From a virus: a stretch of 64,000 nt of DNA. Positions 177-7,742 of the stretch are shown piece by piece; the first letter of the stretch is position 1, and every line of letters begins with the position of its first letter. The stretch covers positions 1-64,000 of IMG/VR virus record IMGVR_UViG_3300031952_000013, one strand, 5' to 3'. The notes under the pieces were generated by a model. That model was not told the origin of the DNA. It made no database searches and saw nothing but the letters and a program-made list of their open reading frames with translations. Made by a program: the position numbers and the translations under genes.

Positions 177-3100
177 ATGGCTACCTATTACGTTAGTCAG
201 GTCGATGGTAACGATAGTTATAATGGGTTGTACCCTACTTTTTTGGGGGGGACTGATGGTCCCTGGCTGACTATTAGTAAGGCCGATGACCTAGCTGGGG
301 ACCAGTCTGATAATTATGTTCTTTTACGTTGTGGAGGTTTGTGGCGAGAATCATATATCATTGGTTGCTATGGAACTTCTGGTCATCCATTTACACTAGG
401 TTCGTATGGGACGGGTGATCTGCCTATCATCTGTGGGTCAAATCTATTCACTTCTTGGACGAATGAATCTGGATATCTTTGGTATACTGCCGCTAATGCC
501 TGGGACTCTTATTTTGTTGCATTTAATGGAACTCCCGGCTGGAGAGAGACTGCGAAGAATGACTTAGATGCTAATATGGACTTCTGGTATGACGCAACTA
601 ATGATAGGGTTTATGTTTACTCAACTGGGGGTAATCCTAATACGGTTTGGACAAATCCGGGTGTCGAAATTGCCGTTAGGCCGAGAGCGATTTGGACTGA
701 CGATGTGTATGATAAAGACTATATCAATATAGAAAACATCAATTTATATGGAACAGGATGCTATTATGGATGGGAAGGGGCTGCACTACACGCAAAAAGA
801 TGTGACAACTGGACGGTTATTGGAGTTGAGATTGGCGTAGTTGCGGGTCAAGGAATACAAACTAACGGTTGTAAAAACTGGACGATTTTATACTGTACAC
901 TATTGGGTTGGAGAGACTGTTATCCTCAGTGGGATGCAAGTGGTATTTCTATAAACGATGATGGCGCAGGTTATGAATCAAGTTATGTTTATATTCACCA
1001 TAACACCATAAATTATTGGCAGAACTGCGCTATTATGATTACTTCATGGGACCATGAATCCCCCTCTACTTATTGCGAGGTTTCCTACAACGATTGTAGT
1101 CATACGTCCAGTGGGGTTTATTTAATAAAAGCAGACCATTGTTCGGTTCACCATAACATCTGCAACGATAATCTTCAGGCGAGAATTTACGGGGAAGAAT
1201 ATGGCCTTGCCCTAGAGACTGGGAACTATAATGAGTTTCATCACAATAGTTGCACGAACGGGATGGTTGGGACGGAGTTTTGGGGTTACGTGACGGGTGA
1301 ACCGTGGCCCGCTTCGGGGACGATAAACAATAACCTATACCATCACAATATCGTTTCGGGGAACGTCATGTTCGGATTTTTAATATACGAAGGATGCTCC
1401 AGTAACAGTCAGATTTACGACAACATAATTTTCAATAATGGACAGGGCGGCATAACCATAAGCGAACACGATGCTACTGGGACAGGGAACCTGGTTTATA
1501 ATAATACTCTTTATCATAACGACACCGACGCGAATCAGTGGTATGCTGATATTTACTTTGGTAATACCTGTGCTGGATGGACCGTCCGAAACAACCTTTG
1601 CTTCAACACAAATAGGTTGTGCTTCCGTGGGGGCGTTACCTTTGGCGGAACACACGACCACAACTGTTATTATAGGGCATCTGGGAATGTTATTAAGGAT
1701 GGTGCTACTTACTATACACTCGCTCAGGTTACGAATTTTGAGGCTACGGCGATAGCGGCAGACCCTGAGCTTGCCAATGCCGGAGGAACAAGTGCTGAAG
1801 ATTACAAGATTCTTTCATCTTCACCTTGCAGAGATACTGGTACAGCTTCCGGGTTGACGTTGACCCTAGATTATTTCGAAAACACGATTCCCTATGGTGT
1901 GGGTCCCGACATCGGAGCGCATGAGTATACGGGTGGAGAGGAGAAGACGGTTCCTCTGAGAGTCACAAGGGAAATAGCTGGAACTTCAACTGCTATTTCT
2001 TCTGTATCAGGTATTGTTAAAAGGAAAAAGAGAATTTCAGGGACTTCGGCTGCTGTTTCTTCTGTGTTGGGGGTTGTTGGTAAAATAGGAGGGGCAGGAG
2101 TAAGCGGTGGAGAGACAAGGGGAATTGATACTTGGGCGCAATTGATAAGACTTCCTAATCCTAACATTAAGATTTTGTGTGAGGCTCTTCCTGCGGCCTA
2201 CTATGTTTGTGGAAGTGGTTGGACTTCTGAGGGTAGTGATACTTATTCTCATGCTTGTGTAGAAACCGGGGTTACAAGTGTGGCCTATAATGGGGTTTCA
2301 CTTACTATAAAAGTTAGCGTTGCTGAGGTTAAGGCTGCTGACGGTAGCTGGTATTTCGATTTCTATGGTCAGATGATTTACGTTCATGGACCTAGCGATG
2401 AAAACCTATCTAGTGGAAGTAATACAGATGTTGTTATGGCTTTTTGCCGTAAGGATTTTGCTACAGCGCCTTATTATTATGGGAATAGAGAGTATCGTCC
2501 TCTTATCCGACAGGATAGTTTTCCGGCTATGGATTTGGCTGTTGATGATATTGTCGAGGGGATGTATCGGTTTAACTTTAGTAGTTTTTCATTGAACAAT
2601 GACGGGTGGTTTGATACTGCGGTGGAAGAATATATTTGGACTAATCGGGTTGTGGTTATCAAGATTGGAGGAGAGGCTCTTCCGTATTCTGAGTATCAGA
2701 CATTCTTTGTGGGTAGAATTTCCGACTTCTCTGTTTCAGATGAATTGGTGGTGTTTACTTTGAAGGATATGCGTGTGGGTAGTTTAGCCCAGATTCCCAT
2801 AGACCATTATTGGATTACTGATTACCCTAACATGGACCCCGATGATGAGGATAAGGCAATCCCTCTTTTTTATGGGGTAAAATCTGACATAACTCCGATT
2901 TGTATTGATACTACGGCAGGAACAGGGGGAAAGTGGAAGATTTGCGATAGTCGGCCAATTAAAGAGATTACCGAGGTTAAGAAGAACAAGAAAGTTTTGA
3001 CTCCCACTACGCAATATACGGTAGATTTGACTAAAGGAGAGTTTACCCTTTTGGTTCCTTTTCATAAAGATAAGGGTCATGTTTTGAAGGTCAAGGCAAA

Positions 3101-4589
3101 AGGGTTTGTTGCTGGGTCTAATAATCTTATAGAAAAGGGCGGAGCGATAGCTAAAGATATTTTAAAAACTTATCTGGGTTGGACGGATGATGAACTTGAC
3201 TTAGATTCTTTTACTAACACAGATTCTTTACGGACATACTTATTAGACATCTATCTGGATACTGATGAGGACTCCAGGCAAGTTCTTCAAACGATAGGTA
3301 GGAGTGTTGTTGCTTTCTTCTCTCCCACAGAGAATGGGAAGTTGTCGTTTATGGCTTATGAACCTACAATTGAAGCTGGAACTCTTGAGTTATTTGATGA
3401 AGATTTCTATGCAGATTGGAAGGTTATAAAAGACGATTCATGGATTAGGCATAAGGTTCAAGTAAGTTATGGTCAGAATCCCACGACGGATGAATACTTG
3501 ATTGTTGAAGTAACTAATGATGAGGCTTTATTTAAGTATGGGCTTAGAGAAACTCTGTCTATTGTTACATATCTAAGAAGTGAATCGGATGCGACTAATG
3601 TGGCTGGTGGGGTTTTGGATATGGTGTCCAAACCTATTACTGTTTTTTCTTCTACCTTTGGGTTGAAAGGTTTTACTTTATTCCCGACGCGGAAGGTGGT
3701 GGTTACTCGGTCTAGAGCGGCGGATGCTACGGGGGAATTTGACGCTAAGGTTTTTAGAATTAAACAGGTTGTAAAGAATCCAACGACGGAGACAACTCAG
3801 GTTATTGGACAGGATGATCTTCAGACTCTTGGGGAAATTTTCTGTTACGTCTGCTATAGCTGTCAGACTTGTTATGCTCAGGAGGTATCCTGTTCGGTAT
3901 GCTATGCCTGTCAGATTTGTAATGCTACGCAGGAAGGTTGTTTGACTTGTGATACGTGTGAACTGTGCGTGACTACGGAGGGTGGTTGTCAGACTTGTGA
4001 TGTTTGTGAGGTTTGCAATACTTGTCAGTCATCGGTAGGGGAGTGTGCCACCTGTCAGATTTGTAATGTCTGTGCGGTTTGTAATATCTGTCAGTCAAAT
4101 GTCACAACTTGTGTGACCTGTCAGGTATGTAATGCCTGTGTATACTGTAACGTCTGTCAGATTAATGTGACTTCATGTACTTCGTGTGAACTGTGCAATA
4201 CGTGTGATTCCTGTAATACCTGTCAGGTTTCGGTTAAGACGTGCTTGACTTGTCAGGCGTGTTATGGTTGTCAAACGGTTTATTCACCCTGTCCTGGGGC
4301 TTGTGATATTTGTAATGTTTGTGATTCCTGCGATACCTGTCAGTTGGGGGTTAAGACTTGCACCACTTGTCAGGTATGCGATACTTGTGAGCATTGGTAT
4401 ACTTGTTATTCGTGTCAGACTTGTCAATTATGCTATTCGGCTCAACACCCTTCGGGATGCGCGGTATGCAATACTTGTCAATATTGTGTGGCAGCTCAGG
4501 ATTGTACTTCTTGTGATGTGTGCAACGTCTGTCAGGGGTCTTGTTATATTTGTGAAATATGTGTGAGTTACCAAGGTGGTCCACCGTGA
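177..4589 (+). CDS. Large tail/receptor-binding protein: N-terminal parallel beta-helix, central tail-hub-like region, C-terminal (Cxx)n Cys array
   Basis: Asn-rich beta-helix repeats (HHNTI, HHNIC, YDNIIFNNG, YNNTLYHN) ending in DP..L...DYKILSSSPCRDTG...PDIGAHEY; tail-like middle (FVGRISDF, IPLFYG); about 64 Cys from residue 1223 onward; tail-gene context. Confidence 0.75.
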   Translation: MATYYVSQVDGNDSYNGLYPTFLGGTDGPWLTISKADDLAGDQSDNYVLLRCGGLWRESYIIGCYGTSGHPFTLGSYGTGDLPIICGSNLFTSWTNESGYLWYTAANAWDSYFVAFNGTPGWRETAKNDLDANMDFWYDATNDRVYVYSTGGNPNTVWTNPGVEIAVRPRAIWTDDVYDKDYINIENINLYGTGCYYGWEGAALHAKRCDNWTVIGVEIGVVAGQGIQTNGCKNWTILYCTLLGWRDCYPQWDASGISINDDGAGYESSYVYIHHNTINYWQNCAIMITSWDHESPSTYCEVSYNDCSHTSSGVYLIKADHCSVHHNICNDNLQARIYGEEYGLALETGNYNEFHHNSCTNGMVGTEFWGYVTGEPWPASGTINNNLYHHNIVSGNVMFGFLIYEGCSSNSQIYDNIIFNNGQGGITISEHDATGTGNLVYNNTLYHNDTDANQWYADIYFGNTCAGWTVRNNLCFNTNRLCFRGGVTFGGTHDHNCYYRASGNVIKDGATYYTLAQVTNFEATAIAADPELANAGGTSAEDYKILSSSPCRDTGTASGLTLTLDYFENTIPYGVGPDIGAHEYTGGEEKTVPLRVTREIAGTSTAISSVSGIVKRKKRISGTSAAVSSVLGVVGKIGGAGVSGGETRGIDTWAQLIRLPNPNIKILCEALPAAYYVCGSGWTSEGSDTYSHACVETGVTSVAYNGVSLTIKVSVAEVKAADGSWYFDFYGQMIYVHGPSDENLSSGSNTDVVMAFCRKDFATAPYYYGNREYRPLIRQDSFPAMDLAVDDIVEGMYRFNFSSFSLNNDGWFDTAVEEYIWTNRVVVIKIGGEALPYSEYQTFFVGRISDFSVSDELVVFTLKDMRVGSLAQIPIDHYWITDYPNMDPDDEDKAIPLFYGVKSDITPICIDTTAGTGGKWKICDSRPIKEITEVKKNKKVLTPTTQYTVDLTKGEFTLLVPFHKDKGHVLKVKAKGFVAGSNNLIEKGGAIAKDILKTYLGWTDDELDLDSFTNTDSLRTYLLDIYLDTDEDSRQVLQTIGRSVVAFFSPTENGKLSFMAYEPTIEAGTLELFDEDFYADWKVIKDDSWIRHKVQVSYGQNPTTDEYLIVEVTNDEALFKYGLRETLSIVTYLRSESDATNVAGGVLDMVSKPITVFSSTFGLKGFTLFPTRKVVVTRSRAADATGEFDAKVFRIKQVVKNPTTETTQVIGQDDLQTLGEIFCYVCYSCQTCYAQEVSCSVCYACQICNATQEGCLTCDTCELCVTTEGGCQTCDVCEVCNTCQSSVGECATCQICNVCAVCNICQSNVTTCVTCQVCNACVYCNVCQINVTSCTSCELCNTCDSCNTCQVSVKTCLTCQACYGCQTVYSPCPGACDICNVCDSCDTCQLGVKTCTTCQVCDTCEHWYTCYSCQTCQLCYSAQHPSGCAVCNTCQYCVAAQDCTSCDVCNVCQGSCYICEICVSYQGGPP

Positions 4590-4603
4590 GTTAGGAGAAG
4601 GCT

Positions 4604-5347
4604 GTGGCTTGCGCGACTTGTGAATTTTGTGATACTTGTCAGGCTTGTAATACGTCGCAGTGTGCTGCTTGTCAGGTTTGCGATACCTGCCAGCAAGGTG
4701 TAGGGTCATGTCAGACTTGTCAGGCGTGTAATACTTGTGAGATGAGTGTGGCTAGTTGCCAAACCTGTCAGGTGTGTGTGGGTTGTCAGATATGTGTTTC
4801 AACAGAGTCTGGATGTTATTTGTGCTATGCTTGTGCGACATGTAACACTTGTCAAAGCTGTGACACGGCTCAGAGTGGTTGTGTGGTATGTGACACCTGT
4901 CAGATGTGCGTGGGGTGTCAAAGTTGTGTTACTGCTCAGTCTGGTTGTGTGATATGTAACACCTGTCAGGTATGTGATGTCTGTCAAAATTGCTATGCGT
5001 CGGAGGGAGGTTGTCAGGTTTGCAATACCTGTCAGGCTTGTGTTTCTTCTCAGGTGTGTGGTAGTTGTGAGACTTGTCAGGTATGCGATGTCTGTCAAAG
5101 TTGCTACACATGGCAGGGAGGCTGTCAGGTTTGTGCTACTTGCGACTCCTGCTATACGAAACAGGAGTGCAGTACCTGTAATGTTTGTAATACCTGTCAG
5201 ATTAGGGTTAGCTGTGTATCATGTGACACCTGCCAGAACTGTAACACCTGTCAGGTTGCGGTTACCTGTACGTCTTGTAATACTTGTCAGCATTGTTATG
5301 CTACTTGCTATTCTTGTGTAAATTGTCAGGTTCATTATGTCCCATAA
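4604..5347 (+). CDS. Stand-alone (Cxx)n cysteine-array protein, candidate radical SAM target or fibre partner
   Basis: GTG start after AGGAGA; about 66 Cys in 247 aa, in 14 blocks of Cys every third residue; directly upstream of the rSAM/SPASM gene. Confidence 0.85.
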   Translation: MACATCEFCDTCQACNTSQCAACQVCDTCQQGVGSCQTCQACNTCEMSVASCQTCQVCVGCQICVSTESGCYLCYACATCNTCQSCDTAQSGCVVCDTCQMCVGCQSCVTAQSGCVICNTCQVCDVCQNCYASEGGCQVCNTCQACVSSQVCGSCETCQVCDVCQSCYTWQGGCQVCATCDSCYTKQECSTCNVCNTCQIRVSCVSCDTCQNCNTCQVAVTCTSCNTCQHCYATCYSCVNCQVHYVP

Positions 5348-5375: not shown

Positions 5376-6908
5376 ATGGATAAAGAGGAGAGGGCTAAAC
5401 TTTGTAGAACGTGTTATTTCTGCCAGCAGGGGGTAGATAAAACACTCTCTGTGGATGATGAGATGTCCCGCTGTCAGAATTGCTACACCTGTGAGCAGGG
5501 GGTGGACAAGTCGGTTACGGCTAGGGATTTGCAGCAGGGGAAGAAGATTGATGGTGTTCTATCATCAGAGGAAGAAGCTAAACGTTGCTGCAATTGCTAT
5601 ACCTGTCAGCAGGATGTATCTGCATCATTTACGGTTAAGACTATTGGTCAGGTATTACAGGAATCAAATGTGGGGATTCCTGATAGGGCTAGTATTTGTC
5701 AGAATTGTTACTCGTGTCAGCAAGGGATAGATAAGTCGGTGAATGTTGATAATATGGGGAAGGGAGCAGCTACAGGTCAGAGCGGAGGATTTACTTGGTT
5801 TGTTTTTCCTACCAATATGTGCAACCTAAAATGCACGTATTGTTATGCGAATAACCAGCCAGGGAAGATGACCAAGGAAACAGCTGAGAAAGTGTTGAAT
5901 TGGTTGTTTGTAAAACAGCCCGATAAGACGATTCTGGTTCATTTCTTCGGTGGAGAACCGACCTATAATTGGGAGATTCTTGAGTTCATTGTGGAGGTGG
6001 GTAATCAAACAGCAAAGAGCAGGGGGGTAGAGGTTTCGTGGTCTATGACTACCAATGGTACGATGCTGGATACTGCTCGCCTTGATTGGATTGAGGCAAA
6101 GTTTAAGAAAGAGGGACCGTTTCTTTTGAGCATTGATGGTAGGCCTGAGACTCACGATAAGTATAGAATTCACGCTAATGGTCTGGGGTCGTATAGAGAT
6201 ATTCCTATTGATGAGATTATAAAGAGATGGCCTAAACTTGAATGTCGTCCGACGATTGAACCGGATACGGCAAAGAATTGGATTTATGATTACCGGTGGT
6301 TGAGGAATAAAGGATTTAAAAATATCGCAATTGAGCCGGATTACGAGACAGAATGGACGGATGTTCAGTTGTGGGATTATGAGAAGATGTTGGTAGCACT
6401 TGGTCATTACTACATCCTGGCTAAGGCTGCTAATCAGCCGATTTACATGAAGTGGATAGACGGGGTGAGGAGCAGCCTTTCTTCTGGGGTTGCTCCTGGG
6501 GGGACAATGTGTGGGACGGCTATCAACTGTGCGGCTATTGACCATCTTGGTTTTATCTATCCTTGTCAGAGGTATGCTAGTTATAGTGACCCTGCGACGT
6601 ATGCGATTGGAGATGTTGAGAAGGGATGGGATGAGTTGAAGTTGTTGGAGACTCAAAGGCTGATGAGGAGTGATGTTTGTGGGGATGTTTTAATGGGCAA
6701 TAATTGTGAGAAGTGCAGTGCGAGGTTGTTCTGCTTTAAGGGATGTAATGCAGCTAACCGAAAGATTATGGGGAGCAGGGAAATTGCTCTTCCTTTTTAT
6801 TGTGAACTGACTCGGATAGATGTTCGTGTGGCGTTGGCTGTTCTGGGTCAGTTAGGAGAATTAGGCTTGCGTCAAGGAGCGGGAAAGATAAGAGGATGCG
6901 AGCGTTAA
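5376..6908 (+). CDS. Radical SAM/SPASM-domain maturase with four N-terminal CxxCYxCQQ repeats
   Basis: CNLKCTYC cluster motif, FFGGEP, TTNGT, SIDG; SPASM motifs CGTA...GFIYPC and CEKC...CFKGC...YC; AGGAGG RBS. Confidence 0.92.
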   Translation: MDKEERAKLCRTCYFCQQGVDKTLSVDDEMSRCQNCYTCEQGVDKSVTARDLQQGKKIDGVLSSEEEAKRCCNCYTCQQDVSASFTVKTIGQVLQESNVGIPDRASICQNCYSCQQGIDKSVNVDNMGKGAATGQSGGFTWFVFPTNMCNLKCTYCYANNQPGKMTKETAEKVLNWLFVKQPDKTILVHFFGGEPTYNWEILEFIVEVGNQTAKSRGVEVSWSMTTNGTMLDTARLDWIEAKFKKEGPFLLSIDGRPETHDKYRIHANGLGSYRDIPIDEIIKRWPKLECRPTIEPDTAKNWIYDYRWLRNKGFKNIAIEPDYETEWTDVQLWDYEKMLVALGHYYILAKAANQPIYMKWIDGVRSSLSSGVAPGGTMCGTAINCAAIDHLGFIYPCQRYASYSDPATYAIGDVEKGWDELKLLETQRLMRSDVCGDVLMGNNCEKCSARLFCFKGCNAANRKIMGSREIALPFYCELTRIDVRVALAVLGQLGELGLRQGAGKIRGCER

Positions 6909-6911
6909 TGA

Positions 6912-7742
6912 ATGGGTAAAGCTAGACAGTTTGGTACGGAATCGGCTTTACAAAAGCACACGGCTCAAATTATCACAATCGCCCACCAGGGTGAGGTCTA
7001 TTTCTATATCAAAGATGAGTATATTGACGTTTCGGTTGGTGTAGCGGATGCAGGTAAGCCTATAGTTTTAGATGCTGCGGGGTTGATTGACCCTTCTATG
7101 TTACCGGCTGCTGACCACGGGGGATTGACTGGACGCGATGATGATGACCACACACAATACCTGAAAGAGGAAGCCTCAGGGGGAGCGGCATCTGAGGTTC
7201 CTGACCATACTCATCAAAGTACAGCTGAGTGTGGTAAACTTGACCACGGTTTATCTATTGATGGGTTAGCTGATGACGATCATCCGCAATACTTTCTTGC
7301 CTCAAAAATGGGGATAATGGGTGTTGTATCGGATGTTACTAACTCTACCCAAACACCAGCGAATGTTACGGGTTTATCTTTTGCTGTGGAAGCCAATAAG
7401 ATTTATCATTTTGAGTTTTCACTTAGAGGATGGAGCACAGCGGCGACTTGTGCGCCCTGGTTCCGGTTTACGGGTCCTGGTAGCCCGACATCATTCTGGT
7501 TTCACCTGGATATGCTAGAAGTTGGTACTGCGTATCCTATTGACCGTGAGGTGACGGCTTTCGATACTAATACTGCTTCGGAGTCATTCCAACGCGCTAC
7601 TCGGAGCTTCATACCGATAGTGGGATTCTTGGTGAATGGGGCGAATGCTGGAACTGTACAGTTGCAGTTTAGATGTGAAGACGCCTCAGAAACGGTGACT
7701 ATATATGCTGGCTCACACGGAATTTGGTATAAATTGAATTAG
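6912..7742 (+). CDS. Probable tail-fibre/virion accessory protein
   Basis: Repeats DHGGLTGRDDDDHTQY and DHGLSIDGLADDDHPQY; C-terminal beta-sandwich-like region (VTGLSFAVEANKIYHFEF...GTVQLQF). Confidence 0.6.
   Translation: MGKARQFGTESALQKHTAQIITIAHQGEVYFYIKDEYIDVSVGVADAGKPIVLDAAGLIDPSMLPAADHGGLTGRDDDDHTQYLKEEASGGAASEVPDHTHQSTAECGKLDHGLSIDGLADDDHPQYFLASKMGIMGVVSDVTNSTQTPANVTGLSFAVEANKIYHFEFSLRGWSTAATCAPWFRFTGPGSPTSFWFHLDMLEVGTAYPIDREVTAFDTNTASESFQRATRSFIPIVGFLVNGANAGTVQLQFRCEDASETVTIYAGSHGIWYKLN

Follow-up and report, generated by a model that had tools for sequence, protein, structure and literature searches.

Register-matched cysteine arrays with complementary linkers beside a radical SAM enzyme in a phage tail locus

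The first 64 kb (positions 1 to 64,000, hereafter the window, abbreviated WIN in comparisons) of the 84.9-kb IMG/VR virus record IMGVR_UViG_3300031952_000013 encode two cysteine-rich arrays in succession: array T at the C-terminus of a 1470-residue tail protein, and a separate protein, S, which is an array from residue 2 through its C-terminus, followed directly by a radical S-adenosylmethionine (SAM) enzyme (Table 1). Analysis of the two arrays and of their metagenomic relatives indicates that T and S agree closely in length and register, that both properties vary together from phage to phage, and that in one clade the linkers between the cysteine blocks fall into two classes, A and B, with opposite classes at matched positions of the two chains. 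We suggest, with somewhat more confidence than doubt, that T and S form a parallel, in-register heteromer that makes up a cysteine-ladder rod at the tip of the tail; in that clade, junctions of A with B would set both the partner and the register, and the cysteines would be stapled by the enzyme.

Anatomy and register of the two arrays

Parsed into blocks by a strict CxxC rule, S comprises blocks with 5, 4, 4, 5, 6, 6, 6, 4, 6, 4, 4, 5, 4 and 3 cysteines, and T comprises blocks with 4, 4, 4, 5, 6, 6, 6, 4, (1+5), 4, 4, 4, 4 and 3. The ninth block of T consists of C-PGA-C followed by four CxxC steps, so that T has 15 blocks strictly and 14 when the two parts are merged. The counts given in an earlier note on this DNA are reproduced exactly for S and, once C-PGA-C is merged, for T as well; every one of the 13 T/S linker pairs listed there is present. 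Counted from the first cysteine, linkers start at residues 10, 26, 42, 61, 83, 105, 127, 143, 166, 182, 197, 215 and 230 in T and at residues 13, 27, 43, 62, 84, 106, 128, 144, 165, 181, 196, 214 and 229 in S, a difference of one residue at 12 of the 13 junctions; after the first linker the two chains never drift by more than one residue over about 240 amino acids. Differences in block size are compensated by linker length: in T the linker YSAQHPSG plus a block of four cysteines, and in S the linker QIRVS plus a block of five, come to 18 residues each, which suggests that length, and not the number of cysteines, is what is conserved. The C-PGA-C junction, which puts a two-residue shift between T and S, follows the eighth linker and is accompanied by a six-residue linker against a five-residue one; both irregularities occur in the T arrays of the window and of two relatives, L006 and L009 (related loci are designated by L and a number), but not in their S arrays.

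S belongs to no Pfam or NCBIfam family and has no PDB relative below E 0.01, and a profile made from the S alignment retrieved only non-significant zinc-finger matches (E 0.02-0.5). A sequence search for homologues of S returned one match only, because HMMER penalises the composition of this protein. Loci were found instead by scanning with an alignment of the enzyme family, some 47 relatives from metagenomes that are 35-74% identical. In all 14 viral loci that have a related enzyme (L001 and L006-L018) the T array comes first, the S array second and the enzyme third, and the same order recurs in further metagenome loci.

For comparisons of T with S, 20 complete, non-identical pairs were kept. 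Left out were loci whose tail array is cut by a contig end (L077, L085, L087, L093 and L094), near-duplicates (L008 of L007, L014 of L013), metagenome copies of viral contigs already in the set (L076, L078, L082, L084 and L086), loci with fewer than two arrays (L079 and L089), and L104-L106, whose open reading frame (ORF) sizes are those of L103. Across the 20 pairs, T spans 56-296 residues and S 52-301 (Pearson r=0.996), the two chains of a pair differ by 5.05 residues on average and by 20 at most, and none of 100,000 permutations reached this coupling. Linkers are equal in number in 12 of the 20 pairs and differ by no more than two in any of them, and cysteine totals are near equal between chains (64/66, 80/83 and 83/81 among the pairs). 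Thus, the coupled gain and loss of blocks that the earlier note expected of homologous pairs is found among these relatives, and over the whole range of 52 to 301 residues the two lengths follow one another though the enzymes are only 27-55% identical.

Linker positions are coupled as well as lengths. When the pairs are sorted into 13 architecture classes, the cognate S is the best fit for 9 of the 13 tails; the mean distance to the nearest linker of the other chain is 2.9 residues for cognate and 15.5 residues for non-cognate partners, a separation reached in none of 100,000 permutations. The offset that matches most linkers, chosen blind to linker type, is 0 (within 2) for WIN, L006, L007 and L009. 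Parallel register outscores antiparallel in 12 of the 13 classes, for which antiparallel pairing was rejected on its worse fit; L103 is the exception.

More distant cassettes, in which the enzyme is about 27% identical or lies off the locus, encode two small stand-alone array proteins abreast with no tail fusion. Length-matched pairs among them are L262 (3477-5077; 248 and 246 residues), L266 (2475-3881; 85 and 91), L267 (1894-2308; 43 and 46) and L103 (155-1221; 162 and 151). Extra scans with the T and S alignments returned mostly known contigs, together with one new long-linker lineage (L245/L246) and several of the distant pairs.

Opposite linker classes in matched positions

A two-component mixture of position-specific scoring matrices, fitted without pairing information to 148 of 167 linkers (those of 5-10 residues) from seven phages, recovered unsupervised the classes A and B that the earlier note had described: component A is [Q/E]-x-x-[V/Y]-[T/S] and component B is [V/N/Y/D]-T-x-[Q/E]-x. 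A simple rule that assigns a linker to A if position 4 is hydrophobic and to B if it is Q/E agrees with the mixture for each of the 143 linkers that it can type. In the window, T reads B B B A A A A A A A B B and is untyped thereafter, its C-terminal tail VSYQGGPP being B-like. All 11 typed, matched linker pairs of the window are opposite, in keeping with the earlier statement that the two chains carry opposite types at nearly every position after the first; in the first pair (YAQEVS/NTSQ) both linkers are B-like, and QGS/YAT is untypable.

Over the seven phages, opposite classes are found in 58 of the 61 matched pairs (WIN 11/11, L006 14/14, L007 13/13, L009 10/10, L010 8/10, L103 1/2 and L018 1/1), and sliding one chain by one linker lowers this to 29 of 54. 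Shuffling types within phages reached 58/61 in none of 200,000 trials, a p value that overstates independence, since WIN, L006 and L009 share a single inherited linker pattern and each alternating array is worth only about 1 bit; by rough reckoning rather than computation, a conservative significance of the anticorrelation would be about 1e-3 to 1e-4. The order of types differs between lineages, being BBAAAAAAABB in the window (BB-AAAAAAA-B is shared by WIN, L006 and L009), ABAB... in L007 and BBBAABAAAB in L010, and the partner is inverted every time; in L010 the extra B within the A run is mirrored by an A in the partner chain. Both typable pairs of the further long-linker lineage L245/L246, in which S stops at the contig end, are also opposite. 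Taken together, the length correlation, the opposite pairs and the better parallel fit uphold the view that the two chains co-evolved in parallel register.

Anticorrelation within the cysteine blocks was sought and is absent: the class of residue that follows a cysteine is weakly positively associated between T and S (odds ratio 2.0, p=0.035, 178 positions), which makes the inversion a property of the linkers. The further claim that an A/B code sets the length of the arrays is unsupported; matched unit number sets length, and the code would set at most register.

The radical SAM enzyme and alternative readings

The enzyme encoded after S matches the radical SAM family PF04055 (E 2.8e-13; 50.8 bits, with the cut-off at 29.5), and its CxxxCxxC motif (C149/C153/C156) is invariant in 33 relatives, as are C379, C397, C444, C447, C453, C457 and C476. 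The SPASM domain PF13186 is unreported at E 0.01; full-length alignments to SPASM enzymes run through to the C-terminus. Among NCBIfam families the enzyme scores highest against the PapB ranthipeptide maturase (NF047865), at 216.8 bits where the cut-off is 340 and with residues 146-467 of the enzyme aligned to positions 10-326 of the 330 in the profile, followed by nif11-type, SCIFF, QhpD and CXXX-repeat maturases; the scores for TIGR04115 and TIGR04463 are 104.7 bits (cut-off 350) and 63.9 bits (cut-off 525). The best PDB match is CteB (5wgg, E 1.2e-25, chain 105-448).

PapB links cysteine to aspartate or glutamate within C-X3-D/E motifs, according to the available part of PMC9413430. T and S can be read as overlapping C-x3-(D/E/N/Q) motifs, D/E/N/Q standing at +4 of 45 of the 64 cysteines of T and of 47 of the 66 cysteines of S, where Q and N outnumber D and E. 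On such a reading a type B linker would offer its Q/E at +4 of the last cysteine of a block, and the Q/E at +1 of a type A linker would be the +4 acceptor of the penultimate cysteine; the junction rings of T and S would thus lie one turn apart, which may be the physical meaning of the code. The enzyme itself begins with short cysteine repeats (Table 1), of which one to six occur in 46 of 47 relatives (P0001-P0047). By the position-4 rule 133 of 137 such repeats are type A, which fits docking on T and S by the same complementarity; no RRE-type domain was detected in the enzyme by Pfam, and the repeats may be a substrate-mimicking docking module.

Among known systems, PapB/PapA (freyrasin) is the likest in enzyme family and in motif, the logic of PapA being a repeated C-X3-D/E in the available part of PMC9413430. 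It differs in that the substrates in the window are a 1470-residue tail protein and a 247-residue protein rather than a short leader-core peptide, that their motifs overlap with period 3, that there are about 65 cysteines per chain in two register-matched chains, and that the window enzyme has N-terminal cysteine repeats, no detected RRE and a score below the family cut-off. Protein-sized, cysteine-repeat substrates of such enzymes have a precedent in Methanococcus voltae, where a SPASM enzyme, CrpC, puts ranthionines on the protein-sized cysteine-repeat substrate CrpA (2026; available part of PMC13692751). The Crp cluster, as described there, resembles the window in having a SPASM radical SAM enzyme next to a repeat-built, cysteine-rich protein substrate and a second related protein, CrpB. 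It differs in the 17-residue repeat, C-X-X-Q/D motif and leader-like N-terminus of CrpA (the TIGR04463 system, for whose profile the window enzyme scores far below the cut-off), and in being archaeal and cellular rather than a virion module; that part of the paper describes no second chain that is matched in length or complementary, and the paper nowhere uses the word 'phage'. The CXXX-repeat systems (TIGR04115) likewise pair a SPASM radical SAM enzyme with long cysteine-periodic repeat proteins, but with period 4 rather than the period 3 (CxxC) of the window, and here too the enzyme falls below the cut-off. Proteins of the lambda gpL family reportedly carry an iron-sulphur (Fe-S) cluster in the siphophage tail tip and would resemble the window in bringing cysteine-based cofactor chemistry to that place; they are said to hold a single cluster in a globular hub and to have no repeat array, partner chain or radical SAM enzyme. 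In collagen heterotrimers and heterodimeric coiled coils, complementary residues at given positions of the repeat determine which chains pair and in what register. The principle of register-coded periodic chains may be shared by T and S, by analogy; fold and chemistry differ, the window having period 3 with cysteine in place of glycine and its discriminating positions in two-class linkers.

The coupling data suit any in-register pairing, brief or lasting, and S might be an assembly or maturation partner, template or chaperone that stays outside the virion, pairing transiently and in register with T in the cytoplasm and then being released, for example after ordering about 64 thiols and presenting them to the radical SAM enzyme. 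Phage fibres often depend on chaperones of their own, whose genes lie just downstream. CrpB, for its part, raised the extent of modification in CrpABC, and its authors suggest a chaperone role (available part of PMC13692751). A chaperone, however, has no obvious need for the cysteine number of its client, nearly matched in the totals given above, or for C-x3-(D/E/N/Q) motifs at 47 of 66 cysteines; by both features S itself looks like a substrate, and we consider a transient role unlikely, though it survives best among the alternatives.

A second alternative would leave the pairing in place and change the glue, the CxxC knuckles of both chains holding Zn, Fe or Fe-S and the radical SAM enzyme having another role or modifying few sites. 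Ligands of metals and of Fe-S clusters classically take the form CxxC or CxxCxxC, the weak PDB profile matches of S are all to zinc-finger proteins, siphophage tail tips with an Fe-S cluster are reported (the lambda gpL family), and about 30% of the array cysteines lack a +4 acceptor. Against this, every related locus has kept the enzyme along with the arrays, the nearest enzyme families make cysteine thioethers, and the odd cysteine counts of block pairs (5+5 and 3+3) are not divisible into four-cysteine sites. Metal binding as the basis of the arrays therefore seems rather improbable.

The history of the arrays bears on a third alternative. The window contains 66-nucleotide tandem units at 4043, 4109 and 4175 in T and at 4880, 4946 and 5057 in S, with identities of 63-78% within and 62-69% across genes; no cross-gene repeat exceeds 69%, and no recent T-S gene conversion is seen in the window. 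Since repeats are more alike within than across genes, T and S seem to have expanded separately yet to the same extent. Apart from cysteines, T of the window is 0.44 identical to T of L006, 0.32 to T of L009 and 0.22 to its own S. In L006, T (near residue 205) and S (near residue 191) share a 249-nucleotide module that is 81% identical between the two genes, its copies being displaced by one 15-residue unit. The earlier premise that simple duplication gives matching linkers is accordingly not always valid: duplication of an ABAB array with a stagger of one unit yields opposite linkers, as in L006. Concerted evolution as the sole cause is insufficient for the window, given its repeat identities, yet contributes in L006 and L007.

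The least probable of the alternatives is that T and S do not pair at all but are independent substrates of one enzyme, alike through common descent and DNA exchange and opposite in their linkers through a one-unit stagger: the staggered module and the T-S identities of L006 and L007, the general similarity of T-T, S-S and T-S identities, and the fact that ABAB arrays can be only wholly in phase or wholly out of phase would suit it, but a stagger is unable to set runs of A against runs of B (seven against seven, with coincident run ends, in WIN, L006 and L009) or to flip the type at the same position in both chains of L010, exchange without selection would homogenise linker types rather than invert them, and neither accounts for a window whose low cross-gene identity accompanies register within one residue over most of its length, the 18-residue compensation included, or for lengths that track each other across such divergent enzymes.

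Several observations weigh against a paired, enzyme-stapled structure in general. The lineages compared are kin, which makes the permutation p values too optimistic. Cognate T and S of L006 and L007 show non-cysteine identities of 0.43 and 0.40, a sign of T-S exchange, and mean non-cysteine identities over five phages (T-T 0.32, S-S 0.34, cognate T-S 0.31, non-cognate T-S 0.30) do not separate orthologues from paralogues; part of the coupling could thus stem from DNA exchange rather than from selection. Length coupling is inexact in L012 (246/266), L081 (135/119), L088 (180/192) and L103 (162/151), and in L017 and L123 S is devoid of linkers though T has some. L103 fits antiparallel better (2.4 against 6.3 residues), and its offset is ambiguous, +8 to +11 giving 6/7 opposite pairs and +25 giving 1/7. 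As to chemistry, the enzyme lies below every curated family cut-off, and there are the acceptor-less cysteines mentioned above. No close relative of the enzyme was found in cellular genomes (best 29% identity at E 1e-18, none above 36%). In the 11 phages of a short-linker clade, finally, complementarity at linker position 1 amounts to 47 of 70 pairs, a value that shuffling reaches in 5871 of 100,000 trials. The anticorrelation that the earlier note proposed to examine by objective clustering and permutation therefore stands in the long-linker clade (58/61) and is weak and not significant in the short-linker clade (47/70): the A/B code is confined to one clade.

Linkers of the short-linker clade are chain-specific, reading xxG[QE] in the tail protein and QxxCYTGQ in the stand-alone protein, and a unified rule of exactly one Q/E at linker position 1 was not significant there (47/70). 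Among 72 cellular loci with distant radical SAM enzymes, none has an ORF with at least 10 CxxC steps. Phass-1 (OQ749652.1) encodes a distant enzyme of 27.5% identity, and its annotation table gives hypothetical proteins throughout.

Locus, proposed structure and meaning

The tail protein has an N-terminal beta-helix-like domain, with a NosD-like match at residues 183-452, a conserved core (residues 650-1218) and the C-terminal cysteine array. The core is kept in 18 related loci (tblastn), and the beta-helix-like part is common to L016 only. The sole family match of the core is phrog_8917 (function not assigned), at residues 750-1075; the core has no PDB match at E up to 1 and no significant Pfam match, and sequence searches found no homology of the tail protein to a characterised Tal or hub protein. 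Its place in the gene order is more telling. A tape-measure gene (PF10145, E 1.9e-28) lies at 78946-83706 of the full record (G000), that is, at its other end, followed by a Dit-like ORF, after which the record runs on into the window start and the tail gene. The order in L001 is alike, with a tape-measure-like ORF of 1430-1458 residues, a 253-residue protein (phrog_8610) and an 849-residue array-bearing protein. The tail gene thus follows tape measure and Dit as a Tal gene does, which places array T at the C-terminus of a Tal-position protein in a siphovirus-type tail.

All listed or examined ORFs of the window are on the + strand, and GC skew is strongly positive across the whole window (0.11-0.42 per 2 kb), the cumulative skew climbing monotonically. 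The genes of T, S and the enzyme are 4-31 nucleotides apart or overlap, which is compatible with coupled translation. Position 3843 is the start of the first cysteine codon of the T array and 5347 the last nucleotide of the S stop codon; the S gene has a GTG start preceded by a GGAGAAGG ribosome-binding site and lies in a reading frame different from that of the tail gene. In L006 (8006-8024) the S gene has no ATG, GTG or TTG ahead of its first cysteine; an ATC follows GGAGG at the usual spacing and may be the start.

Table 1. Features of the array locus; positions are those of the window.
Feature	Position	Strand	Remarks
Tail protein, 1470 residues, Tal (tail-tip) position	177..4589	+	ORF
Cysteine array T of the tail protein	3843..4589	+	64 Cys in 240 residues; 14 CxxC-step blocks
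Stand-alone cysteine-array protein S, 247 residues	4604..5347	+	66 Cys in 239 residues; 14 blocks
Radical SAM enzyme, SPASM-like Cys-rich C-terminal half, putative maturase of T and S	5376..6908	+	
Four N-terminal CxxC[YF]xC + [QE]xG[VI]xK repeats of the enzyme	5403..5738	+	3-Cys block and type-A-like linker each
276-residue protein directly 3' of the enzyme	6912..7742	+	Conserved N-terminus, variable remainder

The 276-residue protein encoded after the enzyme has no family match. Its first 64 or so residues are conserved, at 36-50% identity, directly after the enzyme in five relatives (L007 10602-10796, L008 8972-9157, L009 10650-10841, L010 9283-9489 and L077 2715-2906). From this arrangement it is possibly a fourth member of the cassette, with a layout like that of a receptor-binding fibre and a conserved anchor. 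Outside the window, a 651-residue ORF (G000 73396-75348) begins with about 45 residues nearly as in the tail protein (MAT(P)YYVSQVDGNDSYNGLYPTF...; window 177-300), which suggests a paralogous beta-helix (depolymerase-like) protein that shares the N-terminal module. An ORF that enters at the window start (1-146) ends in AVSS-SGILKRKRELAGS, which resembles ISSVSGIVKRKKRISGTSAAVSS, a motif that the tail protein repeats between its beta-helix and its core (residues ~600-640).

The rod that we propose on the basis of array anatomy, the gene trio, the coupling of length and register, the linker anticorrelation and the family affinity of the enzyme would extend these to pairing, presence in the virion, stoichiometry and chemistry. 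T and S would be two chains of one structure, lying abreast, parallel and in register at the distal end of a siphovirus-type tail, with a cysteine block and its linker as the unit of the rod. Type A linkers, with Q/E at position 1 and V/Y at position 4, and type B linkers, with V/N/Y/D at position 1 and Q/E at position 4, would form a permitted junction only where A meets B, a rule that would forbid homomeric in-register pairing and fix the register of the heteromer. The length of the rod would shift by tandem duplication of units within each gene, and only phages whose two genes had both gained matching, complementary units would persist. The PapB-like radical SAM/SPASM enzyme would most likely turn many of the cysteines into thioether cross-links of the ranthionine type, and might dock on its substrates through the same code, using the type-A-like repeats at its own N-terminus. 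We know of no cultured phage or host for this family.

We advance more tentatively, as a possibility that we hold somewhat doubtful, that all of this amounts to a new architecture, in which two parallel chains with a cysteine at every third residue form a thioether-stapled rod at the tail tip, with a binary A/B code, matched duplication, and a maturase that reads the code through A-type repeats of its own. No publication that describes CxxC arrays of phage tails together with a radical SAM enzyme turned up in the literature, supplementary lists aside (for example, that of radical SAM-associated cysteine-rich proteins in the supplement to PMC13692751). Cysteine-repeat proteins modified by radical SAM enzymes are already known; the pairing code, if real, has no described counterpart.

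If the chains pair, these phages build part of the host-contacting tail tip from a cysteine-ladder heteromer that is matured by a radical SAM enzyme of the type that acts on peptides made by the ribosome and modified after translation (RiPPs). Thioether chemistry would then extend from small peptides to virion structure, and with a rod stapled in this way a virus particle would for the first time contain a thioether network installed by an enzyme. In the A/B junctions, heteromeric register would have a simple, readable code in a new type of fibre, whose principle, akin to the coiled-coil and collagen codes, might be programmed in fibre design and might provide protein engineering with rigid, reduction-resistant spacers of programmable length. 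For the phages themselves, the tuning of array length between 52 and 301 residues would be traceable directly in metagenomes, and the two arrays would be a clean, testable example of the co-evolution of two genes through matched tandem duplication.

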